Origin: an uncultured Gammaproteobacteria bacterium
GTDB lineage: Bacteria; Patescibacteriota; Microgenomatia; Levybacterales; GWA1-39-11
Assembly: GCA_964537315.1 (NCBI GenBank)
Contig: CAZIAP010000005.1
Location: 18,669-82,668, forward strand
Length of the DNA: 64,000 nucleotides
Direction of reading: 5' to 3'
Shown: piece by piece, positions 7,391 through 42,841 of the stretch
Layout of the letters: each line of letters begins with the position of its first letter
How positions within the stretch are numbered: position 1 is the first letter of the stretch
Made by a program: the position numbers and the translations under genes
Notes under the pieces: model-generated
Seen by the model: only the letters and a program-made list of their open reading frames with translations
Told to the model about the DNA's origin: nothing
The model's database searches: none

Positions 7391-8134
7391 ATGGAACTTC
7401 TAATTCTTCTGGTACCTTTACTACTCGTTATTTTAGTTTCAATTAAGCAAGTTAATCAATACGAGAGAGGTGTAAAGTTTCAGTTCGGTAAGTATGTGTC
7501 TATCATGGAGCCGGGTTGGAGACTTGTATGGCCAATTATTCAAGGATGGCAAAAAGTTGATATCCGTACAAAAGCAGTTGATGTGCCTGATCAAGAGGCA
7601 ATTACCAAAGACAATATTTCAGCTCGAATTAATGCTGTAATTTATTACCGTGTATCTCATGTAGAAAAAGCGGTGCTTGAAGTAGAAGATTTCTATTACG
7701 CAGTCTCACAGCTTGCACAAACTACGATGCGTAATGTAGTAGGTGAGACCTCACTTGATGATCTTTTGTCTCAGAGAAACAAAGTAGCTGACAAAATCCA
7801 AAATATAATTGATAAGGCCACAGATCAATGGGGAATAAAGGTAGAGTCGGTAGAGTTAAAAGACATTTTATTACCTGAGGAAATGAAAAGAGTGATCGGA
7901 CGACAGGCAGAAGCAGAGCGTGAGCGACGTGCGATAATCATAAGGGCAGAAGGTGAAAAAGCTGCTGCGGAAAATATTGCAAAAGCAGCAGATGTACTTG
8001 CTAAAACTACAGGCGGTCTGCATATCCGTACACTTCAGACACTTAATGAAGTATCAAGTGATAAATCTAATACTGTAATATTTGTGACGCCCCTTGAGGT
8101 TCTGCGAGCTTTCGAGAACTTTATTAAAAAATAG
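7391..8134 (+). CDS. SPFH / band-7 (stomatin-prohibitin-HflK/C-like) membrane protein
   Basis: N-terminal TM helix, then QYERGVKFQFGKY... and an E/A/R-rich coiled-coil tail typical of the SPFH domain. Confidence 0.8.
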   Translation: MELLILLVPLLLVILVSIKQVNQYERGVKFQFGKYVSIMEPGWRLVWPIIQGWQKVDIRTKAVDVPDQEAITKDNISARINAVIYYRVSHVEKAVLEVEDFYYAVSQLAQTTMRNVVGETSLDDLLSQRNKVADKIQNIIDKATDQWGIKVESVELKDILLPEEMKRVIGRQAEAERERRAIIIRAEGEKAAAENIAKAADVLAKTTGGLHIRTLQTLNEVSSDKSNTVIFVTPLEVLRAFENFIKK

Positions 8135-10193: not shown

Positions 10194-11117
10194 GTGTCGC
10201 AGCAAAAAGCCCAACGAATCGGCGCTCTCATCGTGGGGATGAAGATCCGACTCGTTGTCGTTCCTGTGTTGGTGGCTGCAATCAGTGCAGTCATACTGGT
10301 AGTTGGCGAGAATACGCAGGAGGGTCAGAGCGAAAGCTCTGATCCTCAGGTCACACCCGTGATAGTATCAGCAGCACATGCTCCTATGGAGTACTGGGTT
10401 TCTGATCTTCCTCCGGTACTGACCAAACCTGCTATCGTCAAACAATCTCCACAGGAACAAGAACGCACTGTAATCAAATTTCAACTGCTTGAGCACCATG
10501 AACTCAGTGAGTCACTGCCTCAAGAAGAGCGCAAGACGCTGATGGTTAACTCTGCTTTGCAGTTTACTGAATTTGATACTATGCGTCCTGTACCAGCCAC
10601 TGCGGCGACAGAAGAAAACGTAGATATCCATGAACCGGTTGAAGAACCGGCAATAGAACAAGTAGAAGAAGTTGAACCTACAGCGGTTCCTGAACCGGAA
10701 CCACCTGTTGAGGAAATACTTCCTGAACCAGAACCAACCATAGAAGAACGGTCCGTCGCAGAGTATGCAAGCACAACCCTGTATGATGCAGGACAAGCCG
10801 CGTACTATGATCCCAGTTTTGACTGGGGAGGTTGGGAGAGTATCTATTGGATTCACGTAAACGCGGGACGTGTTGCTCAGGGAGCATCAGGTCCTAGTCC
10901 AAACGGATATCACTGTGTACACGTCAACTATGATATAGTAGGTGCCACATTTATTCTTCGCGCAAACGGCGTTGAGATTACATGTGTCACTGCTGACATG
11001 GTTCACGTAGATCATAAAGGCCAATGGGCAGGAAAATGGGCAATAGAGTTGTCCTGGACTGCCTTTGTAGCACTCGGACTCGACAACAATAACTATGTCG
11101 AGGTATATCTTCCTTAG
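10194..11117 (+). CDS. Hypothetical exported protein (GTG start), Pro/Glu-rich linker and conserved C-terminal domain
   Basis: AGGAG RBS upstream of GTG. TM/signal region, EPEPPVEEILPEPEP linker, Cys/His-containing globular C-terminus. Locally GC-richer. Confidence 0.5.
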   Translation: MSQQKAQRIGALIVGMKIRLVVVPVLVAAISAVILVVGENTQEGQSESSDPQVTPVIVSAAHAPMEYWVSDLPPVLTKPAIVKQSPQEQERTVIKFQLLEHHELSESLPQEERKTLMVNSALQFTEFDTMRPVPATAATEENVDIHEPVEEPAIEQVEEVEPTAVPEPEPPVEEILPEPEPTIEERSVAEYASTTLYDAGQAAYYDPSFDWGGWESIYWIHVNAGRVAQGASGPSPNGYHCVHVNYDIVGATFILRANGVEITCVTADMVHVDHKGQWAGKWAIELSWTAFVALGLDNNNYVEVYLP

Positions 11118-38648: not shown

Positions 38649-38677
38649 TTGACGTAATTAGTTTTATAATGTATATT
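38649..38677 (+). promoter_or_regulatory. Candidate sigma-70-type promoter for tuf
   Basis: TTGACG, 17-bp spacer, TATATT, about 47 bp upstream of the tuf ATG. Confidence 0.4.
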
Positions 38678-38723
38678 ATCATCACACCTAAAAAAAAGGG
38701 TGTTTTTATTTGGGGAAACCAAT

Positions 38724-39908
38724 ATGGCTGACACAAAATTTGAACGAACAAAACCACACGTAAATATCGGAACCATCGGTCACGTAGACCATGGTAAGAC
38801 AACTACAACAGCTGCAATTGCTACTGTTCTTTCTAAAAAAGGACAATCAAAGGCAATGAAGTATGAAGATATCGACAACGCACCTGAAGAAAAGGCTCGC
38901 GGTGTTACGATTAATATTTCTCACATTGAGTACGAAACTGAAAAGCGTCACTATGCACACATTGATGCTCCAGGTCACGCAGACTATATTAAGAACATGA
39001 TTACCGGTGCTGCACAAATGGACGGAGCTATCCTTGTTGTGTCTGCAGCTGATGGACCAATGCCTCAGACTCGAGAACACATTCTACTTGCTCGCCAAGT
39101 AGGAGTACCATCAATTGTTGTATACCTTAACAAGTGTGACATGGTTGAAGATCCAGAACTTCTTGATCTTGTTGAAATGGAAGTTAGAGAGTTGTTATCA
39201 AAACAAAAATATGATGGTGATAACACACCTATTATTAGAGGCTCATCACTAAAAGCACTTGAAGGAGACGCAGAATATGAAAATAAGATCGTTGAGCTTA
39301 TGAATGCAGTTGATGAGTTCATTCCAACTCCAGAGAGGCCAGTTGATCAACCATTCTTGATGCCTGTTGAGGATGTTTTCTCAATCAAAGGACGAGGAAC
39401 AGTTGTTACAGGACGTATTGAGCGCGGTGTTGTAAAAGTAAACGAAACAGTACAAATCGTAGGAATTAAAGCTAACCAAGACACAGTTGTTACCGGTGTT
39501 GAGATGTTCCGAAAACTTCTTGATGAAGGACAAGCTGGTGATAATGTTGGATTACTTCTAAGAGGTATCGAAAAAGACGATGTTGAAAGAGGACAAGTTC
39601 TTGCAAAACCAGGATCAATTACTCCTCACTCAGAGTTTGAAGCTGAAGTTTACATCTTAACCAAAGAAGAAGGCGGACGTCATACACCTTTCTTCTCAGG
39701 ATACAGACCTCAGTTCTACATCAGAACAACTGACGTAACAGGAGAAATCAAACTTCAGGAAGGTGTAGAAATGGTTATGCCTGGAGATAACGCAAAAATG
39801 AATGTTAAACTAATCGTTCCAGTCGCTATGGAAGACGGAATGAGATTCGCTATCCGTGAAGGTGGACGAACAGTAGGTGCAGGTGTAGTTACAAAAATTA
39901 CTAAATAA
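38724..39908 (+). CDS. tuf: Elongation factor Tu
   Basis: [27 protein letters not shown]...DAPGHADY...NKCD, conserved full length. Start adjusted. Confidence 0.95.
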
Positions 39909-39957: not shown

Positions 39958-40266
39958 ATGGCTAAAGGTAGAATTAGAGTAAAGCTAAAAAGTTATGATT
40001 CTCGAATCATAGACTCGACGTGTCAACAAATCCTTGACACAGCTATCAGAACAGGCGCAAAAGTAATCGGTCCTATCCCCCTACCAACCAAGCGATCTCT
40101 CACAGTTGTTAACAAATCTCCATTTATTGATAAAGATGCTCGTGAGCATTTTGAACTTAAAACTCACAAAAGACTTATCGATATCATGACTCCGACAGAT
40201 AAGACCATCGAGTCTCTAATCCACCTTGATCTCCCAGCAGGTGTTGATGTAGAGATTAAGATGTAA
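39958..40266 (+). CDS. rpsJ: 30S ribosomal protein S10
   Basis: MAKGRIRVKLKSYDSRIIDST...IRTGAKVIGPIPLPT. Confidence 0.9.
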   Translation: MAKGRIRVKLKSYDSRIIDSTCQQILDTAIRTGAKVIGPIPLPTKRSLTVVNKSPFIDKDAREHFELKTHKRLIDIMTPTDKTIESLIHLDLPAGVDVEIKM

Positions 40267-40346
40267 AAAGCGCAGAGCTAAAAACGAATAGCGCAAAGTT
40301 ACATCTTAAAATATATTAACCACTATCTACTTTTCTCTTTAGCTTA

Positions 40347-40355
40347 TGGTATACT
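40347..40355 (+). promoter_or_regulatory. Extended -10 promoter element (TGgTATACT) 7 nt upstream of the ATG, suggesting a leaderless transcript
   Basis: TGGTATACT at 40347-40355. ATG at 40363. No RBS. Confidence 0.35.
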
Positions 40356-40362
40356 CTGATCC

Positions 40363-40884
40363 ATGAAAGAGCAAGAAAACTTTCATTTTCCGTTTGATAA
40401 TGACAACTCCTCATCTGAAAGTAATCTAGATCCTGAAATTGCCAGAGTTGAAGCAATAAAATATGCTGAAAAAATAAAACAAATCATAAATATGATAAAA
40501 ACTACTCAAGAGACGAATCTAGGTAATGGAATGTGGATTAGCAGGAATAATGAAGGTGATATTGTCCCAGTATTGTACGATGACTCCAATTTCATTCAGG
40601 GTGTAAGTGGAATTACTATATTTAGCGTCTGGAAACCGTCATCTGATTCAGAACCTGTTTTGGAAGAGTCTATGTGTATACAATTTATTCATGAAGTAGA
40701 GGAATCTAAAGTAGGTGTAACAAAATATGATTTTTACGAGGATGGGGAATACGAAAAAGATAAAAGATATATTGTAGATGGCGAAAAAAGTCATGTTATT
40801 GTAAATGAGCCTATGTCTAGTGCCGATTTCGAGCTTGTTGGTTATGCATTAAAAAATATTTACAATAAATTACCAGCATTTTAA
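40363..40884 (+). CDS. Acidic hypothetical protein encoded between rpsJ and rplC
   Basis: 173-aa ORF with its own promoter-like element and a downstream terminator. No motif recognised. Confidence 0.5.
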   Translation: MKEQENFHFPFDNDNSSSESNLDPEIARVEAIKYAEKIKQIINMIKTTQETNLGNGMWISRNNEGDIVPVLYDDSNFIQGVSGITIFSVWKPSSDSEPVLEESMCIQFIHEVEESKVGVTKYDFYEDGEYEKDKRYIVDGEKSHVIVNEPMSSADFELVGYALKNIYNKLPAF

Positions 40885-41037
40885 AAATTTTTAATCTTTC
40901 TTACCCCTCTCTTGCAATCAGGCTTCAAATTTAATATAATTACTCGTATTGTCATGAGTTTAAATCAGGCTGATTTGACTAAACGTTATTCGAGAAGCAT
41001 TTCCTGACACTGAACTCTCCTATGGAGAAACAGTAGA

Positions 41038-41064
41038 ACGGCTTTTCGAAAGCCGTTTTTTTAT
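41038..41064 (+). terminator. Rho-independent terminator
   Basis: AACGGCTTT-TCG-AAAGCCGTT (9-bp stem) followed by TTTTTTTA. Confidence 0.7.
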
Positions 41065-41114
41065 GTCTCAAACACACATGATTCAGAAAAGATTACATAT
41101 AAAAATTATTAAAA

Positions 41115-41975
41115 ATGAACGTAACAACATTAATTGGAACAAAACTAGATCAGAAGCAAACCTTTCTTGAGGATGGTACACGTGTACCAGTTTCTCTTAT
41201 TTCAATCCGCGAAAATGTAATTACACAGATTAAAAACGTTGAAACTGATGGCTATATGTCACTACAGCTAGGATACGGTTCAACAAAAAAGGCAAAAAAT
41301 TCAGTAAACGGAATGGCAAAAAAAGCGGGGTTAAAAGAAACACCCCGTTTTTTACGAGAAACTCGTGTAGAAGACGTATCTGATGCTACAGTCGGTAACT
41401 CTCTCAAAGTTGAAGAAGTATTTGAAGCTGGAGATATTGTAAATGTTGCTGGAACTTCAAAAGGTAAAGGATACGCTGGTGTAGTAAAACGACATGGATT
41501 TCACGGTGGACCAAAAACTCACGGACAGTCAGACAGACATCGTGCACCAGGATCAATCGGACAATCCGCAACACCGGGGCGCGTATATAAAGGTAAAAGA
41601 ATGGCTGGACGTATGGGAAATGAACGTGTTACAGTCCGGAATCTTATGGTTTTAGATATCGTAGATGGTGTTTTATATGTTAAAGGACTTGTTCCAGGGC
41701 CAAAAGGGACATTAATTGAAGTCAAAAAAGTAGGACATGATAATAAATTTACTCCACTATTCAAAATTGTTGAGGAGGTAGAGGCAACAGACGCTAAAAC
41801 TACGGAAGATACGCCAGCTGTAGAAGAGACAGTAGTAGTTGATGAAGTAGTAGAGGAAACTCCAAAGACAGAGACAGTTGAAGAATCTGCTCCTGAAGAA
41901 GATGCTAAATCTGAAAATAAGGATGAAGTTGTAACTCCGATTGAAGAAGAATTAAAGAAGGAGGAGAAAGAGTAA
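41115..41975 (+). CDS. rplC: 50S ribosomal protein L3 with an ~80-aa acidic C-terminal extension
   Basis: N-terminus and core match L3 (LEDGTRVPVSLI...). Extension is rich in E/V/T. Confidence 0.9.
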   Translation: MNVTTLIGTKLDQKQTFLEDGTRVPVSLISIRENVITQIKNVETDGYMSLQLGYGSTKKAKNSVNGMAKKAGLKETPRFLRETRVEDVSDATVGNSLKVEEVFEAGDIVNVAGTSKGKGYAGVVKRHGFHGGPKTHGQSDRHRAPGSIGQSATPGRVYKGKRMAGRMGNERVTVRNLMVLDIVDGVLYVKGLVPGPKGTLIEVKKVGHDNKFTPLFKIVEEVEATDAKTTEDTPAVEETVVVDEVVEETPKTETVEESAPEEDAKSENKDEVVTPIEEELKKEEKE

Positions 41976-42085: not shown

Positions 42086-42841
42086 ATGGCAGAAGTAAAA
42101 AAGAATACTAAAAAAACAACTGAGGTAAAGGCTAAGGTAAGCAAGCCAACCGCAACTAAAGCAATGGCGAGCAAGGAAGCACAGCTTAAAGTTAGCGTTG
42201 TAGATATAAATGGAAAGTCAGCTGGAACAATTGAGTTACCAGTAGAGGTATTTGGTGCTAAAGTTAATCCTACACTTATGGCGCAAGCTGTTCGTGTATA
42301 TCTTGCAAACCAGAGGCAGGGAACGGCACGCGCTAAAACTCGTGGTGAAGTAAACGCTTCAACTCGTAAGATTTATCGACAGAAAGGTACTGGGCGCGCA
42401 CGGCACGGTGCGCTTACTGCACCTCTTTTTGTAGGCGGAGGAACAACTTTTGGTCCTAAACCTCGTGATTTTTCATTGAACTTTTCAAAGAAAATGCGTC
42501 GAGCTGCTCTATTTAGTGCTTTGACTCAAAAAGTTGTAAATAAGGAGCTCGTTGTTCTTGATGTATCTAATGGAGTAACAGGAAAAACAAAAGAAATGTT
42601 TGGAGCATTAAAAGCTTTAAATATGCTTAATAAAAAAGGAAAAGGAAATAAGGTTTTGTTAGTTACGCACGACGCTGAGTCGGTAAAAAAAGCAGCGCGT
42701 AATATTGAAGGGGTTCAAGCTACAAGCGTATCAACACTTTCGACTTATACAGTCCTAAATCACAGAAATATAATCTTTGTAAAAGGCGCAGTTGGAAAGA
42801 TGAGTGAAATATATCTAGATAAGCAAGAAGCTAAAAGCTAA
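42086..42841 (+). CDS. rplD: 50S ribosomal protein L4, possibly with ~26-aa Lys-rich N-terminal extension
   Basis: Core [16 protein letters not shown]...GTGRAR. Alternative start at Met 42164 gives a canonical-length L4. Confidence 0.85.

Follow-up and report, generated by a model that had tools for sequence, protein, structure and literature searches.

The well-studied autoregulatory RNAs of ribosomal protein (r-protein) operons come largely from Escherichia coli and Bacilli. A literature search found no description of such RNAs for the Candidate Phyla Radiation (CPR)/Patescibacteria. In the S10 leader of E. coli, analyzed by Zengel and Lindahl, L4 and NusA stimulate termination at a U-run hairpin, and a second hairpin, directly upstream, is also needed (PMC3616713). 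The r-protein regulatory RNAs of E. coli are mostly confined to Gammaproteobacteria, and the S10 leader RNA is confined there as well (PMC3616713). An L4 r-leader candidate before rplC-rplD-rplW-rplB has been proposed in Archaeoglobi, and an S10 r-leader in Firmicutes (Eckert & Weinberg 2020, PMC7247131). For the infC-rpmI-rplT leader of Bacillus subtilis, L20-dependent transcription attenuation and mimicry of rRNA have been documented (PMC1865079). Here we analyzed a stretch of 64,000 nucleotides (nt) from contig CAZIAP010000005.1 (the window; coordinates refer to it, and features lie on its plus strand unless stated), in which rpsJ (S10) and rplC (L3) are separated by a promoter-leader-terminator element. 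This element looks like a previously undescribed and uncatalogued control element conserved across Microgenomates. Together with the lineage-wide split of the S10 operon and the cargo hotspot at the split, it was the noteworthy result, rather than an inserted gene.

The window element resembled the E. coli S10 leader in that a U-run terminator, preceded by a promoter and a 100-170-nt leader, lay shortly before the first gene of an L3/L4 operon, a second hairpin adjoined the terminator hairpin on its upstream side (HD/HE in E. coli, P2 and the terminator here), and the large S10-spc-alpha gene series followed. Unlike that leader, it was located before rplC instead of rpsJ, which stayed with tuf (49 nt), and it contained two to three hairpins in about 116 nt, compared with five in E. 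coli. No hairpin covered the start codon, and the spacer before rplC was unstructured. Neither sequence similarity nor similarity detectable with Rfam 15 was found, the latter being a weak negative, as the presence of the family in Rfam was unverified. L4 binding and NusA dependence are features of the E. coli leader and would be putative in the window leader. Like the Archaeoglobi and Firmicutes candidates, it is a cis-RNA proposed from comparative genomics alone, upstream of rplC-rplD-rplW-rplB or the S10 cluster, but it comes from another lineage, is unrelated in sequence (cmscan against Rfam 15 gave no match) and ends in a covarying intrinsic terminator. The B. subtilis infC-rpmI-rplT leader, an example of such control outside E. 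coli, also belongs to an r-protein operon and switches between terminator and antiterminator, as proposed for the window leader, but the operon, the ligand and the structure are different.

Promoter, leader and terminator upstream of rplC

In all 19 loci compared, rplC was immediately preceded by the module on its own strand, despite variable surroundings. The rplC loci were obtained from the GTDB genome set, from contigs encoding the closest L3 proteins and from a metagenome scan that used the promoter pattern as its anchor. Nine were close relatives, the window included (L3 core about 75-86% identical, S10 92-99%), and ten were more distant Microgenomates/Patescibacteria loci (L088, L138, L108, L139, L141/L142, L004, L007, L012 and L021), which spanned Levybacteria (L139, L141), Blackburn-, Woese- and Roizmanbacteria and one Patescibacteria metagenome-assembled genome. 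The promoter-anchored scan returned 45 matches, three of them real, and each of these three had the leader, the terminator and rplC downstream; a metagenome scan with N-terminal L3 peptides yielded no further loci. An analysis of the L3 homologues placed the genome of the window in the Microgenomates of the CPR superphylum, near Candidatus Levybacteria.

The promoter of the rplC operon (40899-40940) consisted of a TCTTAC box (40899-40904), the -35 element TTGCAA (40912-40917), a 17-nt spacer and the -10 element TATAAT (40935-40940). The 42-nt promoter pattern matched once in the window, where 0.07 matches were expected, and was matched in every close relative. A TTGnnn-17-TATAAT promoter (TATACT in L004) was located 90-125 nt upstream of the T-run in 19 of the 19 loci. 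The TCTTAC box, 7 nt upstream of the -35 element, was restricted to the 15 Levybacteria-like loci, occurred once in the window and may be an UP-like element or a factor-binding site. All nine close relatives showed the same order, namely TCTTAC, 6 nt, CTTGCA (-35), 18 nt, TATAAT, 11-16 nt and an ATG, followed by hairpin P1, the TCGAG box, the CCTGACACTGAACTCTCC block, hairpin P2, the terminator, the T-run, an unconserved spacer of 28-55 nt and the ATG of rplC. They kept this module whatever gene cargo lay between it and rpsJ, including L083, where there was none. In the ten distant loci the order of a promoter with a 17-nt spacer, a 90-125-nt leader, a terminator and rplC was repeated in unrelated sequence. 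A covariance model of the close group detected a single copy at each locus and no further one in the window, with scores of 108-142 bits in the nine close relatives; it failed to recover the distant leaders L088, L138, L108 and L141 and was marginal for L139 (E 0.076). Homology of the distant leaders is suggested by shared architecture and short motifs only.

The strong terminator of the first-pass annotation (41038-41064) was confirmed at 41037-41062, with the 5' arm AACGGCTTT (41037-41045), the loop TCG, the 3' arm AAAGCCGTT (41049-41057) and seven T residues (41056-41062). The 9-bp stem (4 G-C pairs) with its 3-nt loop had a predicted free energy of -12.9 kcal/mol (z -3.9), none of 200 shuffles was as good, and the hairpin was the best terminator-like site within 38-46 kb of the window; the stability on which the annotation depended was thereby borne out. 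A terminator was present at the same place in 19 of 19 related loci, and the sequence of its stem differed between close relatives. In a model-based alignment of the nine, five of seven pairs had changed on both sides and 92% of the cells were paired, giving a covariation score above 500 of 500 shuffles and above all slid registers. This pattern indicates that the terminator is under structural selection.

The leader RNA, as predicted between the promoter and the last T of the T-run, was about 116 nt long (40947-41062; the start site is read from the sequence), and its minimum free energy (MFE) of -30 kcal/mol was better than that of shuffles (z -2.66). Outside the terminator, about 70 nt of the leader were conserved, in part invariantly, among relatives whose L3 proteins share only 73-86% identity. 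Hairpin P1 (AAATCA GGC TGATTT, 40962-40976) was 96% paired; at the same position, L141 carried AAACTAT..ATAGTTT, which reads as two compensatory swaps. The TCGAG box TCGAGAAGC (40990-40998) was complementary to the 5' arm and loop of the terminator, GCTTTTCGA, and is a candidate antiterminator strand. The near-invariant 18-nt block CCTGACACTGAACTCTCC (41003-41020) contained a single variable column (A/G at 41013, with G in three of nine) and could either pair with 40956-40969 to form the helix H1 or serve as the 5' strand of P2. H1, a long-range helix of 12 bp (40956-40962 and 40965-40969 with 41003-41007 and 41011-41017), was possible in each of the nine close sequences and 100% paired in all of them, compared with 17-50% in slid controls, and it would compete with P1, P2 and the base of the antiterminator. 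Hairpin P2 (TCTCC TAT GGAGA, 41016-41028), directly upstream of the terminator, was 100% paired in the close group, and distant loci had hairpins of other sequence at its position (AUCCCU/AGGGAU in L088, ACAAG/CUUGU in L138).

A mini-ORF of 17 codons, MSLNQADLTKRYSRSIS (40954-41007), started 13 nt after the -10 element, and its TGA stop fell inside the conserved CCTGACAC block. Every one of the 19 leaders had a short open reading frame (ORF) of 7-17 codons beginning with ATG, 9-17 nt after the -10 element in 16 of them and 1, 7 and 33 nt after it in L004, L012 and L021, respectively. The mini-ORF was rejected as a conserved peptide and its translation found no support, as its variable sites were distributed 9/8/10 over the three codon positions and its ratio of synonymous to non-synonymous changes was no better than that of other frames.

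The spacer before rplC (41063-41114) was A-rich, unstructured (free energy about 0, z +1.2) and unconserved, with no Shine-Dalgarno (SD) sequence and no convincing -10 element. Its length varied from 9 to 84 nt across 18 loci, and the T-run came within 9-14 nt of the rplC ATG in L141, L142, L021, L138 and L139. The first-pass annotation had reasoned that rplC needs a promoter of its own, which agrees with the conserved TTGCAA-17-TATAAT at 40912-40940. It had suggested looking for that promoter in 41065-41114, and this location was not supported, since the stretch was neither conserved nor structured and no TANNNT was found in the last 25 nt before the ATG in the window.

Proposed attenuation and its alternatives

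In the five loci with 9-14 nt between the T-run and the ATG, no promoter fits into the interval, and therefore rplC would have to be transcribed through the terminator. With read-through required in this way, the terminator looks like a transcription attenuator. We consider it moderately probable that the module is a transcription-attenuator leader of the rplC-rplD... operon, analogous but not homologous to the E. coli S10 leader. According to the first-pass annotation, rplC and the downstream genes had escaped the L4-mediated control of the S10 leader. A leader before rpsJ, as in E. coli, was indeed absent, but leader control has probably not been lost, as the operon appears to have a leader of its own in front of rplC. 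The best explanation of the gap is that it holds two independent things, a variable slot after the tuf-rpsJ unit and the control region of the main r-protein operon.

RNA polymerase starting from the promoter at 40912-40940, or arriving from upstream, would have to pass the terminator 52 nt before rplC. Excess operon product (L4, or else L3) would shift the leader towards the terminator by binding near P2 and the invariant block, which would result in feedback. Without bound product, pairing of the TCGAG box with the 5' arm of the terminator, or plain inefficient termination, would let the polymerase pass. By analogy, feedback by an operon product is the most likely logic, and we favour attenuation mediated by a protein (L4 or L3) over a ribosome-mediated mechanism, a stand-alone small RNA or an unregulated leaky terminator.

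An alternative fold of the leader was also predicted. In the MFE fold of the window sequence, the terminator was replaced by a long hairpin of TTCGAGAAGC with GCTTTTCGAA, the latter comprising the 5' arm, the loop and two nucleotides of the 3' arm of the terminator. Folding of nascent transcripts showed the TCGAG box paired with the terminator arm in most homologues, and in a swap test the cognate pairs of box and arm were more stable than swapped ones (p ~0.03). The antiterminator fold is thus plausible in these models, and the evidence for a switch is suggestive only. Several points weigh against regulated attenuation. Column-wise covariation of the antiterminator was not significant (69.6% of cells paired versus 67% in shuffled alignments; 33/500), and slid registers paired similarly, two registers having been tried. 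P1, P2 and H1 were invariant in the close group and provided no evidence from covariation. Rfam 15, searched both at the gathering score and with a limit of E 10, gave chance-level matches only and no r-protein leader. Weak -10-like hexamers were present 4-8 nt before the rplC ATG in L083 (GATAAT), L084 (CATAAT) and L093 (GATAAT), so that a second, leaderless rplC promoter is possible in these genomes. A strong terminator without a regulated switch would look identical in sequence.

In one alternative explanation the terminator is an unregulated insulator, blocking transcription from tuf-rpsJ or the cargo and setting a fixed, leaky output of the strong rplC promoter, with neither ligand nor switch. 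Insulation would be useful next to unrelated slot genes in both orientations, and the non-significant covariation of the antiterminator is in keeping with it. An insulator is, however, expected upstream of a promoter and not between the promoter and its gene, and a plain terminator leaves the ~70 nt of conserved leader unexplained, which makes this explanation quite unlikely in our judgment. A stand-alone small RNA gene of ~116 nt beside rplC, with rplC expressed by leaky read-through or from another promoter, is a second alternative: a promoter and an efficient-looking terminator enclose a conserved, structured RNA, and two nearly invariant blocks are expected of a trans-acting RNA. Against it stand the constant position of the element directly upstream of rplC on the same strand (19 of 19 loci), the lack of a second copy in the window, the lack of room for a separate rplC promoter in five loci and the lack of a match to any small RNA family in Rfam. 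We regard the small RNA gene as unlikely. The original proposal, in which a leaderless promoter, ORF173 (the 173-amino-acid ORF in the gap) and the terminator form one inserted unit and rplC is transcribed from a separate promoter in 41065-41114, is very unlikely and the least probable of those weighed. The terminator and the promoter upstream of it were conserved in relatives lacking ORF173, including L083 with its empty slot, and for this reason the terminator was assigned to the rplC module and not to ORF173. The unconserved 41065-41114, its lack of TANNNT close to the ATG and the five loci with a short T-run-to-ATG distance also disagree with a separate promoter there, although ORF173 does have a good leaderless-type promoter and the terminator at 41037 is the first to follow it, many genes of this genome have leaderless starts, and some relatives carry the -10-like hexamers described above.

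The mini-ORF offers a further alternative, leader-peptide attenuation, in which a ribosome on the mini-ORF would decide between H1, the antiterminator and the terminator and so couple translation capacity to transcription. Its start falls on the 5' strand of H1 and its stop within the invariant block, a short-ORF ATG was found in every leader and 9-17 nt after the -10 element in 16 of 19, and leaderless or near-leaderless initiation is common in the genome. Yet the mini-ORF has no SD and shows neither codon-position bias nor a synonymous to non-synonymous ratio differing from other frames; the frame is truncated in L083 while the RNA block stays conserved; the ATG of L004, 1 nt after the -10 element, would not be transcribed; and in L139, L141 and L138 a predicted helix encloses the AUG. 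Ribosome-mediated attenuation therefore seemed distinctly improbable. There is an equally slim chance that the r-protein operon of Microgenomates, perhaps of more Patescibacteria/CPR, is cut off from rpsJ and controlled by an attenuator with a ribosome-read, near-leaderless mini-ORF, so that translation capacity and not free r-protein sets read-through; if true, ribosome synthesis in these organisms, whose regulatory repertoires are minimal, would be under an attenuator that senses ribosomes. Attenuation by L4 or L3 remained our preferred reading of the rplC leader.

The variable slot and its surroundings

The rpsJ gene (39958-40266; Pfam PF00338, E 9e-33) and rplC (41115-41975; Pfam L3, with an acidic C-terminal tail), both from the ORF list, were 848 bp apart in the window, and the first-pass description of ~850 bp with three elements inside was correct, as all of them were present. 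This gap is unusual among bacteria in general, because it was only -4 to 159 bp in 68 loci from ordinary bacteria. The adjacency of rpsJ and rplC is often taken as near-universal. Among the relatives, similarity ended exactly at the rpsJ stop codon and restarted at the TCTTAC box (~15 nt before the conserved promoter), and the slot between these borders had a different content in nearly every relative. It held ORF173 (+) in the window, ORF219 (+) and ORF70 (-) in L002, ORF67 (-) in L084, ORF204 (-) in L087 and ORF151 (-) in L082, and it was empty (247 nt) in L083. Among the distant loci, L138 contained an EamA transporter gene and ParE with a DUF6290-like antitoxin (toxin-antitoxin pair at 10324-10844), L004 contained HicA/HicB (toxin-antitoxin pair at 2184-2694) and an orphan, L139 a cation-efflux gene and an orphan, and L007 NUDIX/primase-like, FtsJ-like and metallophosphatase genes. 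Searches of Pfam, PHROGs and PADLOC gave no match for ORF173 or the other cargo of close relatives. The GC content of the slot cargo was 32.6%, compared with ~37% for the window. The cargo was also considered as a mobile element or recent insertion and rejected as such, since no flanking repeats and no recombinase were found and the codon usage of ORF173 was host-like. From the variable cargo and the lack of repeats and recombinase, it follows that the break between rpsJ and rplC, as judged from these loci, is lineage-wide in Microgenomates with turnover of cargo, and not an insertion peculiar to this genome. The claims that an insertion had broken a conserved adjacency in this genome, and that promoter, ORF173 and terminator had arrived as one unit, were accordingly abandoned, as the break was found throughout Microgenomates and the terminator was kept under different or no cargo.

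ORF173 (40363-40884; ORF list) encodes a protein of 173 amino acids (aa) with a pI of 4.48, 32 acidic (D+E) versus 16 basic (K+R) residues and SSS at residues 16-18, as in the first-pass description of an acidic ORF with a serine run near the N-terminus. Its codon log-likelihood was positive in its own frame only, at +0.215 bits/codon, and all five other frames gave negative values. Searches with the single sequence retrieved only itself, both in a word-indexed search of 5.8 billion proteins and in an exhaustive phmmer search of 1.84 billion representatives. Comparison of the slot ORFs of relatives, by contrast with these searches, identified two homologues with 23-30% identity in the same position and orientation, one of 172 aa in L118 (L118:7343-7858; blastp 30% over 148 aa, E 5e-8) and one of 197 aa in L093 (L093:307-897). 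All three shared the C-terminal motif M-x-S-x-DFE-[LI]-[VI]-G-x-[AI]-L, and a profile search with the family found nothing beyond the three members. The start of the L093 homologue shared the sequence TAATG with the stop codon of rpsJ, an overlap suggestive of translational coupling. An AlphaFold2 model from the 3-sequence alignment (pLDDT 70, pTM 0.66) predicted an alpha-beta protein with a disordered N-terminus, a helix at 24-44, ~8 strands and a helix at 153-169. Because of the syntenic homologues, the host-like in-frame codon usage and this model, ORF173 is taken to encode a real protein and to be a genuine gene of a fast-evolving, lineage-restricted family. The possibility that it was spurious, which the first-pass annotation had allowed for, was thus answered by its homologues and codons. 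Conservation at the same position held in part: homologues were present in L118 and L093, while other relatives had different cargo and L083 had none. A Foldseek search of the model against PDB and BFVD gave no significant match. The top PDB matches, p32/gC1qR/MAM33 and Whirly-type proteins, are of an acidic alpha-beta-alpha type like ORF173, with which they share a predicted N-terminal helix, ~8 antiparallel strands and a C-terminal helix; with E 0.03-0.2, TM 0.22-0.31 and a root-mean-square deviation >12 A for a model from three sequences, this likeness is a lead only.

The start of ORF173 was of the leaderless type. The extended -10 element TGGTATACT (40347-40355) was followed by 7 nt (CTGATCC) and the ATG at 40363, and no SD was present (anti-SD duplex -2.9 kcal/mol), in agreement with the first-pass annotation. 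The layout was repeated upstream of the L118 homologue, where TTGTATAAT (TATAAT) was followed by 8 nt and the ATG. In the window, a leaderless-type -10 element preceded 29 of 82 ORF starts (35%), compared with 10% of all ATGs. About a dozen genes had a near-consensus TGTATAAT/TATACT, and at least 12 besides ORF173 shared the leaderless layout. Near-consensus (TG)TATAAT elements 5-8 nt before an ATG without an SD were seen, for example, at 7391, 13501(-), 19274, 35289(-), 35619(-), 36329 and 33083. An SD was present at about half of the internal r-protein genes. A leaderless start of ORF173 from a promoter of its own, as first proposed, is therefore plausible and would be ordinary for this genome, in which leaderless initiation looks like a major mode. 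With TGnTAnnnT 7 nt before the ATG and no SD, ORF173 resembles leaderless mRNAs from extended -10 promoters and would be one more instance of them.

The upstream unit consisted of tuf (38721-39908), 49 nt upstream of rpsJ, and rpsJ as its final gene. An 11-bp perfect inverted repeat around the rpsJ stop codon, TTAAGATGTAA/TTACATCTTAA (40256-40309), formed a predicted hairpin without a U-run (-16.5 kcal/mol, z -4.96), and none of 200 shuffles folded as well. This hairpin may be a 3'-end or stabilizer structure of the tuf-rpsJ transcript. At the same position in L118, a TTAAGA/TCTTAA pairing was readable. The tuf promoter TTGACG-17-TATATT (38649-38677) was directly followed by a hairpin, CACACC-A8-GGGUGU, with UUUUAUUU (38684-38711, -10.4 kcal/mol), and then by the ATG at 38724; promoter and hairpin were kept in L002 (936-1010). 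The tuf-rpsJ unit may thus also begin with a terminator-like 5' element. In L139, an ORF of 109 aa without a Pfam match (94-423) was located between tuf and rpsJ, and therefore the tuf-rpsJ junction too can accept cargo.

Downstream, rplC was the first gene of a long r-protein cluster, followed by rplD at 42086, rplW, rplB and the rest of the S10/spc/alpha series. The L3 protein carried an acidic, low-complexity C-terminal extension of ~80 aa (41733-41975), which was variable in length among relatives (L3 266-307 aa), and L4 carried a Lys-rich N-terminal extension of ~45 aa (42086-42230). In L087, rpsN, rpsH and rplF directly followed rplC (2122-2764) and the rplD-to-rplE segment was missing, which points to a rearrangement or a chimeric assembly. 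The contig of L002 (CAYVAJ010000003.1) is titled 'uncultured Gammaproteobacteria bacterium'; its S10 and L3 were 99% and 73% identical to those of the Microgenomates-like window, and the label is probably wrong.

Implications for r-protein operons in Microgenomates

Orphan genes and toxin-antitoxin modules have a hotspot in the gap between rpsJ and rplC of Microgenomates. The broken adjacency is a caution for synteny-based annotation, and it is relevant to gene birth beside highly expressed operons. The rplC leader is a candidate regulator in a group where few have been reported, and together with L4 or L3 it makes an RNA-protein pair that is open to a direct test in vitro. A conserved attenuator before rplC, and not rpsJ, would show that the logic of a terminator in the S10 operon's leader arose independently in a deep, uncultivated lineage.

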